NCBI GenBank assembly: GCA_038858525.1
Contig: JAWCFL010000003.1
Span: 45,491 to 77,490, forward strand
Direction of reading: 5' to 3'
DNA: 32,000 nt
DNA from: Candidatus Jordarchaeales archaeon
GTDB lineage: Archaea; Asgardarchaeota; Jordiarchaeia; Jordiarchaeales; Freyrarchaeaceae
Position 1 is the first letter of the stretch. Every line of letters begins with the position of its first letter. The notes beneath the pieces are model-generated. The model searched no databases. It was given only the letters and a program-made list of their open reading frames with translations, and was not told the DNA's origin. A program made the translations under genes and the position numbers. This document shows, in pieces, positions 8,155 to 18,065 of this stretch.

Positions 8155-8260
8155 GGGCGGGTAGTCTAGCGGTTATGACTCCCTGATGGAAGTTTTTCAG
8201 GGGCAAGAAGCCGCCCTCACACGGCGGAGGCCCCAGGTTCAAATCCTGGCCCGCCCACCA
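8155..8260 (+). tRNA. tRNA-Val(CAC) with one non-canonical intron (25/26); CCA encoded
   Basis: Acceptor GGGCGGG/CCCGCCC, A73, CCA; anticodon arm CCGCC-CT-CAC-AC-GGCGG; T arm CCAGG-TTCAAAT-CCTGG. A 30-nt insert (8180-8209) has inner helix CCCTGA/TCAGGG and a relaxed BHB. Confidence 0.95.
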
Positions 8261-17816: not shown

Positions 17817-17883
17817 GCAGAATAATATGAGAAAAGATTATAGAAAAAAAATAGTGTTACGCAGAAACTATAAAGGAGAGATG

Positions 17884-18013
17884 TGGCGGGTCTGGAGGGA
17901 GTTTCACTGCTTCTCGGTTTTGAACCCTCGGCCTCCGGCTTTCTCCAGCGAAATTCCGAAGGCCGGCGCCCTATCCTAGCTGGGCTTATCCCCCTTCTAT
18001 GGGTTACAGACCC
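17884..18013 (-). tRNA. tRNA-Arg(TCG) with three introns (9/10, 37/38, 59/60); CCA encoded
   Basis: Acceptor GGGTCTG/CAGACCC, G73, CCA; D stem GCCC/GGGC with A20; anticodon arm CCGGC-CT-TCG-GA-GCCGG. Introns: 17986-18004 (19 nt), 17941-17955 (15 nt, CTTC/GGAG) and 17901-17918 (18 nt, TTCA/TGAA). The spliced product is 78 nt. Confidence 0.92.
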
Positions 18014-18050
18014 CTTACAACCCGCCTATGTTTTAGAAGAGACAAAAGAG

Positions 18051-18065
18051 AATTTAAACTCTTTC
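18051..18065 (-). promoter_or_regulatory. BRE/TATA promoter of tRNA-Arg
   Basis: Minus-strand GAAAGAG-TTTAAATT ends 38 nt from the mature 5' end, implying a leader of roughly 10-15 nt. Confidence 0.6.

Follow-up and report, generated by a model that had tools for sequence, protein, structure and literature searches.

Intron positions in archaeal tRNA genes are thought to be limited by where a BHB motif can form. The tRNA-Arg(TCG) gene analysed here raises the question of how an insert can be spliced when its motif needs a strand of the tRNA's own acceptor stem, and what part is played by a short leader segment, GGCGGGT, that is complementary to the tRNA 3′ end. The gene lies within a 32,000-nucleotide stretch of DNA (the window) from a 2.1-Mb hot-spring metagenome assembly of an Asgard archaeon. 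Its neighbours are unrelated to tRNA: a PAC2-family protein is encoded upstream, and a dCTP-deaminase-like protein and a phosphoribosyltransferase are encoded downstream.

The tRNA-Arg(TCG) gene occupies positions 18013-17884 of the window on the minus strand and contains three inserts, at 8/9-9/10 (19 nt), 37/38 (15 nt) and 59/60 (18 nt). In the raw window the unspliced gene received no call from ARAGORN or Rfam. Removing the three inserts yields a canonical 78-nt tRNA-Arg(tcg) that ARAGORN accepts. In the spliced tRNA, the acceptor stem (GGGTCTG/CAGACCC) is perfectly paired over 7 bp, G73 precedes an encoded CCA, and the core features U8, A9, G10-C25, A14, G18G19 and the T loop TTCAAAT. A single promoter serves a 130-nt gene with all exons in collinear order, and the gene is therefore neither a split nor a permuted tRNA. 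A gene model with GGCGGGT/ACCCGCC as the acceptor stem and A73 as the discriminator was rejected, because the 3′ strand of the T stem (CCCTC) runs directly into CAGACCC, and GGGTCTG leads into U8 and the D arm. From promoter to terminator, the locus is composed as follows.

18051..18065, minus strand: promoter, with a purine-rich BRE-like GAAAGAG and the TATA box TTTAAATT (18058-18051); 13/18 columns invariant in four species.
18027..18029, minus strand: predicted transcription start, about 30 nt past the first T of the TATA box, placed from TATA spacing only.
18020..18026, minus strand: leader decoy GGCGGGT, exact complement of the tRNA 3′ end, most likely an ancestral leader GGC followed by GGGT, a copy of nt 1-4.
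18014..18019, minus strand: spacer TGTAAG, separating the decoy from the tRNA and 5-6 nt long in relatives; 1/6 columns invariant, length varies.
18005..18013, minus strand: exon 1, tRNA nt 1-9 (GGGTCTGTA).
17986..18004, minus strand: intron 1, 19 nt, at 9/10 (= 8/9), with a relaxed BHB whose central helix involves acceptor nt 3-6; ends conserved and 4-nt loop variable in four species.
17956..17985, minus strand: exon 2, tRNA nt 10-37, with the D arm, the 5′ side of the anticodon stem and the anticodon TCG.
17941..17955, minus strand: intron 2, 15 nt, at the canonical 37/38 position, with a strict BHB (4/4 central pairs, 5-bp outer helix).
17919..17940, minus strand: exon 3, tRNA nt 38-59.
17901..17918, minus strand: intron 3, 18 nt, at 59/60 in the T loop, with a strict BHB.
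17884..17900, minus strand: exon 4, tRNA nt 60-76, including G73 and the encoded CCA; the decoy target ACCCGCC lies at 17891-17885.
17844..17851, minus strand: T8 run, a likely transcription terminator judged from the sequence; a weaker TTTAT lies at 17874-17870.

Introns 2 and 3 satisfy the strict geometry of a 4-bp central helix flanked by two 3-nt bulges. The central helix of intron 3 pairs TTCA of the T loop with TGAA of the intron, the T stem serves as the outer helix and both bulges are 3 nt long. Among the orthologs from four species, the first base of this intron is A, G, A or T, whereas the future nt 60 is always T. The D stem of the spliced tRNA covaries from GCCC/GGGC to GCTC/GAGC in one of these species (G002).

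The BHB of intron 1 is relaxed, containing two G-U pairs and one 4-nt bulge. The intron slides by one base, with cuts at 8/9 and 9/10 leading to an identical product. Only one arrangement with four central pairs removes 19 nt. It pairs G3-T6 with GGAT, and it is the very motif that had been proposed from the sequence alone. In this arrangement, the 5′ bulge is 4 nt long, the 3′ bulge (AA|G10) is 3 nt long, the inner helix is CCC/GGG and the outer helix, formed with C11-C13, comprises 3 bp (two pairs in G002). Under strict geometry, the same central helix would excise 20 nt, with loss of nt 9. All arrangements place the 5′ strand of the acceptor stem in the central helix. Consequently, both the acceptor stem and the D stem must be open for the motif to form, as had been pointed out in the sequence-only reading. 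The site is common to four species, with CCC...AAGGGGGATAA invariant and the 4-nt loop and the first base variable.

A heteromeric, broad-specificity (alpha-beta)2 EndA has been reported to accept bulges of 1-4 nt (PMC3239211). The genome contains two ORFs with an EndA domain (PF01974; 110.7 and 80.6 bits), and the presence of two separate genes suggests that the enzyme may be of this broad-specificity heteromeric, two-subunit type. The domains map to G000:C3:81835-82089 (minus strand), about 4.3 kb past the end of the window, and to G000:C43:5978-6235 (plus strand), within frames of 193 and 198 aa, respectively.

The leader segment GGCGGGT (18026-18020), located 6 nt upstream of tRNA nt 1, is the exact complement of tRNA nt 69-75 (ACCCGCC, 17891-17885), a target that includes part of the acceptor 3′ strand, the discriminator and the CC of CCA. 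Pairing of the two would involve six GC pairs and one AU pair versus five GC and two AU pairs in the acceptor stem; in G002 the complement amounts to eight Watson-Crick pairs. On all these points, from the 7-nt complement and the count of pairs to the coordinates and sequences of the decoy and of the TATA box (18058-18051), the sequence-only reading proved exact.

The TATA box starts at -45 relative to nt 1 of the tRNA, versus about -33 to -42 in most other tRNA genes of the genome; in genes with a decoy it is found at -45 to -47, about 10 nt further upstream than usual. Given the usual archaeal TATA spacing, the transcript is predicted to begin 1-3 nt before GGCGGGT. The sequencing runs that contain the stretch are hot-spring DNA metagenomes only, with no RNA run among them.

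To assess conservation, we aligned the target gene with its orthologs from three congeneric genomes, all of which contain the same three introns (four species). The TATA box is invariant in all four. Within the leader, the decoy stretch TAGGCGGGT is invariant in 9/9 columns, as is exon 1 (9/9), versus 6/53 columns in the neutral flanks (2/23 between TATA box and decoy, 1/6 in the spacer and 3/24 in the trailer). The leader stretch is thus conserved like an exon, amid sequence that is not conserved. Both decoy and acceptor are invariant across all orthologs found. Every ortholog with the same intron has the complement (four species), and relatives without the junction intron lack the 7-nt decoy.

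Our catalogue of tRNA genes in the genome comprises 28 recognisable genes, of an expected 45 or so. A leader complement of at least 7 nt to nt 66-76 is found in two of the 28, tRNA-Arg(TCG) and tRNA-Thr(GGT), which are also the sole genes with an intron at 8/9-9/10. For the other 26 recognisable genes, the leader complement never exceeds 5 nt. Complements of at least 7 nt occur in 7/496 stem-pair candidates of the genome, two of which are the junction-intron tRNAs; random stem pairs reach this length in 5/494 cases, a background of about 1%.

The tRNA-Thr(GGT) gene (G000:C12 ~51830-51935, minus strand; loci L032/L033) reads GCCCCGG, a 5-nt spacer, GCCCCGG again, T and a 16-nt intron at 8/9. 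The BHB of this intron is strict, with C3-G6 paired to CGGG and with bulges GT|G and AA|A. Decoy, variable spacer and intron are found together in four genomes from two genera (G000, G003, G002 and G004). The decoy is degenerate in one species (G001), and both the decoy and the 8/9 intron are absent from the sister family. The Arg decoy and the 9/10 intron are confined to the target genus. The Thr intron also contains CCTCATTA, a complement of the anticodon arm with which it pairs in the RNAfold prediction.

A third example is the initiator tRNA of a genome from another Asgard family (G036:C1:6727-6879, plus strand; L049 / L097), which reads AGCGGGG, an 8-nt spacer, AGCGGGG and a 31-nt intron at 7/8. 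Its first exon is 7 nt long, and its strong HBh' motif has four Watson-Crick central pairs. The TATA box lies 31 nt before the decoy, which places the decoy at the predicted transcription start. The initiator tRNA is the only one of 30 tRNA loci in this genome to have a decoy; at least five loci with D-loop introns, for which the acceptor strand is not needed, are without one. Decoys thus accompany acceptor-borrowing introns in 2/2 cases versus 0/26 other genes in the target genome, and in 1/1 versus 0/29 in G036. The comparison supports the view that decoys track acceptor-invading introns in three separate gains, the co-occurrence being that of three evolutionary events only. While the Thr and iMet decoys are copies of nt 1-7, the register of the Arg decoy is shifted by three and covers G73-C75.

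A wider search for AGCGGGG-N(4-20)-AGCGGGG in 301 Asgard genomes returned 26 matches, approximately as many as the reversed control, one of them (G036) at a tRNA. A further candidate, a tRNA-Arg of another family (L009 in G016), was rejected: its leader GGGCCGT resembles its own 5′ strand GGGCCCG, but the complement is only 5 nt, within background, and there is no visible junction intron. Searching for tRNA 3′ ends without a contiguous 5′ strand gave no convincing orphan genes.

The shifted register of the Arg decoy can be rationalized by its probable origin. GGC directly precedes GGGTCTG, and the 3′ end reads CAGACCC-GCCA, in both the paralog tRNA-Arg(CCG) from this genome and the G004 ortholog of tRNA-Arg(TCG), which comes from another genus. 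These two genes have only the GGC leader and are without the junction intron. The presence of GGC in a paralog and in another genus indicates that it is an old leader feature of this tRNA family, complementary to G73-C74-C75. In the target genus, the 5′ end reads GGC GGGT-TGTAA-G GGGTCTGTAA-C. Judging from these sequences, the decoy most likely arose when about 10 nt at the 5′ end of the gene were duplicated in tandem, downstream of the older GGC leader; only GGGT is still intact in the upstream copy. A decoy made of GGC and a copy of nt 1-4 explains the shift to nt 69-75. The Arg leader is thus a well-supported instance of such a decoy and a distinct variant, both in its register, which includes the discriminator and CC, and in an origin traceable to the GGC leader and a partial duplication.

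The paralog (L002; G000:C4 ~36016-36150, plus strand) and the G004 ortholog (L006) have the 37/38 and T-loop introns in common with the target gene, and a D-loop insert in place of the 9/10 insert; the 5′-side intron thus differs between close relatives. tRNA genes of the target genome mostly encode CCA. In several of its G73 tRNAs (e.g. C4:36016, C32 minus strand, C2:114927, C37 minus strand), the final leader bases GGC or GGT complement G73-C74-C75, a pairing that would extend the acceptor stem of the precursor to 10 bp and that may be no more frequent than chance.

To understand how the leader might affect folding, we computed RNAfold ensembles with and without it. With the leader present, the decoy helix forms with a probability of ~1.0 and the acceptor stem with a probability of 0.0, and the result is the same at 37 and 70 °C; leaderless RNA is predicted to form the acceptor stem. 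The prediction agrees with the sequence-only reading in that the decoy outcompetes the acceptor stem. In constrained ensembles at 37 °C, the decoy helix leads by 8.6 kcal/mol in the Arg precursor with all its introns and still by 5.8 kcal/mol once they are out. The corresponding values for Thr are 3.5 kcal/mol in the precursor and 2.7 kcal/mol after splicing. In the model, splicing moves the balance toward the cloverleaf without flipping it, and no simple thermodynamic switch is predicted. The switch that had been proposed from the sequence alone is therefore not borne out in its simple form, since the nearest-neighbour model keeps the decoy favoured after splicing. The energy model leaves out tertiary contacts, modifications and proteins; with the decoy helix still favoured in the spliced RNA, refolding into the cloverleaf must depend on factors that the model does not include.

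The proposal that the leader captures the 3′ strand and thereby frees the 5′ strand fared unevenly. The decoy helix predicted with near certainty, the conservation of the decoy and its specificity for genes with such introns all agree with it, but the BHB of intron 1 does not appear in the MFE or ensemble folds with the leader (RNAfold), either for Arg or for Thr. Instead, the freed 5′ strand is predicted to pair with T-arm sequence. We read the modelled energies as sufficient for the decoy to play the proposed role and as costly if it were useless; so strong an obstacle would presumably have disappeared had it conferred no benefit.

Our preferred reading, which we hold to be reasonably probable, is that the leader is a decoy, or placeholder strand, that holds the tRNA 3′ end so that the 5′ strand can build the cutting signal of intron 1. 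We infer that the decoy is transcribed and needed for cleavage, and that events would proceed in the following order. The transcript would begin with the decoy GGCGGGU. Exon 1 and intron 1 would fold locally into the relaxed BHB, with acceptor nt 3-6 pairing with GGAU of the intron. The newly made 3′ strand (nt 69-75) would then be captured by the free decoy and could not strip the 5′ strand from the intron. EndA would cut and a ligase would join the exons. With its intron partner gone, the 5′ strand would exchange with the decoy while the tRNA body folds into the cloverleaf. Finally, RNase P would remove the leader together with the decoy and render the step irreversible; an RNase P RNA was found in the genome (174.6 bits).

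Attenuators and riboswitches likewise rely on mutually exclusive helices and a logic of strand competition. By analogy, and in logic only, the acceptor 3′ strand would have two alternative partners, and the choice between them would decide the outcome. Unlike in attenuators and riboswitches, no ligand or ribosome is involved at the Arg leader.

Among the other explanations, the one that survives best is that the leader complement ties up the discriminator and CC and so delays RNase P cleavage, 3′ trimming, CCA checking or aminoacylation of an unspliced precursor, as a quality-control lock on end maturation with no effect on the BHB. A lock of this kind would account for the shift of the Arg decoy onto G73, C74 and C75 and for a decoy helix that is still favoured after splicing; shorter GGC or GGT complements to nt 73-75 also precede several G73 tRNA genes without a junction intron. 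However, complements of at least 7 nt are found only with acceptor-invading introns and not in other multi-intron genes that would equally need a lock, and in Thr and iMet the decoy simply repeats nt 1-7. We consider a pure end-maturation role unlikely. Because a lock at the ends and an aid to splicing are not mutually exclusive, the leader could possibly serve as both; in the sequence-only reading, too, the leader would hold back end-processing until splicing is complete.

The tandem duplication invoked above could also have left nothing but a functionless, tolerated remnant. The leader does read as two copies of the gene's 5′ end (GGC GGGT-TGTAA G / GGGTCTGTAA), and the orthologs show no covariation, both decoy and acceptor being invariant. 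Yet a remnant should have diverged with the spacer and flanks (6/53 columns invariant), whereas the stretch is unchanged in 9/9 columns. In addition, the architecture has three independent origins, in Arg, Thr and iMet, always beside an acceptor-invading intron, and the predicted 4-9 kcal/mol hindrance of the acceptor stem should be selected against if the stretch were useless. This makes a mere remnant rather improbable.

It is very unlikely that GGCGGGT is a promoter element acting at the DNA level, such as an initiator or initially transcribed sequence, with only incidental complementarity to the 3′ end: it does sit at the predicted start site and is conserved along with the TATA box, but it is absent from other tRNA promoters of the genome, and the Thr and iMet genes have a different sequence at the same place, each matching its own acceptor strand. 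Hardly tenable is a model in which the tRNA begins at the upstream GGGT (18023-18020) and the 10 nt that follow (TGTAAGGGGT) form a fourth intron in the acceptor stem. The mature sequence would be the same, with identical products for any cut from 0/1 to 4/5, and the paralog and the other genus do have GGC immediately before nt 1. However, no BHB-like motif exists at any of the five equivalent positions (at most 2/4 central pairs under strict geometry, no flanking helices) and the 10-nt piece varies between species in length and sequence.

Returning to a leader that holds the tRNA 3′ end on behalf of intron 1, we compared it to known systems. Non-canonical BHB introns, known from Thermoproteales, ARMAN and others, are short, protein-spliced inserts outside 37/38, with up to several per gene, and have been reported at 3/4, 20/21, 22/23, 25/26, 29/30, 30/31, 45/46, 53/54, 56/57 and 59/60 (PMC4090602, PMC4033280, PMC3239211). 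The introns of the target gene resemble this group, in which relaxed motifs are cut by a broad-specificity EndA and the reported sites include 59/60 and even 3/4. A 9/10 intron and a mechanism of this kind appeared undescribed in the sequence-only reading, and the literature bears this out: no intron at 8/9 or 9/10 was found in searchable reviews and primary papers, and the searchable literature on archaeal tRNA introns mentions no leader that competes for the 3′ strand of the acceptor by pairing with it. Still, the junction position is rare rather than unique, given the 8/9 intron of tRNA-Thr in the same genome and the 7/8 intron of iMet in another family.

According to the accessible part of a 2026 Asgard preprint, tRNA genes of Jordarchaeia are heavily interrupted, with 2.2 inserts per gene on average; many are missed by standard software, D-arm inserts are common, and junction and acceptor inserts are grouped as rare 'other' (10.64898/2026.10.13.758758). 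The target gene, missed by ARAGORN and Rfam, resembles the Jordarchaeia genes described in that part of the preprint (10.64898/2026.10.13.758758), which, unlike our analysis, does not discuss leaders and intron folding.

In the searchable literature, complementary leaders are described only for split tRNAs (Nanoarchaeum equitans, Caldivirga) and permuted tRNAs (PMC4090602, PMC3218864). As in those systems, a flank that is not part of the tRNA would pair so that the splicing endonuclease finds its motif. In split and permuted tRNAs, however, the BHB is built by the flanks themselves through mutual pairing, whereas the Arg leader takes no part in the BHB and has its partner in mature sequence of its own RNA. 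The Arg decoy would act by competition and be removed by RNase P, in contrast to the flanks of split and permuted tRNAs, which are removed by EndA.

Whether the leader represents an undescribed general class of cis-acting placeholder strands at the 5′ ends of pre-tRNAs in intron-rich archaea is, in our judgement, evenly balanced. Such strands would let introns settle where their motif borrows the acceptor stem and would impose an order in which splicing precedes RNase P cleavage; the Arg leader would be the variant that grips the discriminator and the encoded CCA. A leader that parks the tRNA 3′ end would explain how introns persist at sites where their motif competes with the tRNA's most stable helix, and would be a new kind of RNA-folding aid in tRNA maturation. 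The leader complement would also provide a simple sequence signature for hidden 5′-proximal introns, and the decoy would bear on the tolerance of Asgard archaea for extreme interruption of tRNA genes.

The window also contains a tRNA-Val(CAC) gene (8155-8260, plus strand), whose leader complement to the 3′ end is at most 3 nt. Its acceptor stem is GGGCGGG/CCCGCCC, followed by A73 and CCA, and a single insert of ~27-30 nt is located between the D arm and the anticodon stem. The Rfam match to this gene covers 8201-8257 only and has the 5′ part wrong.
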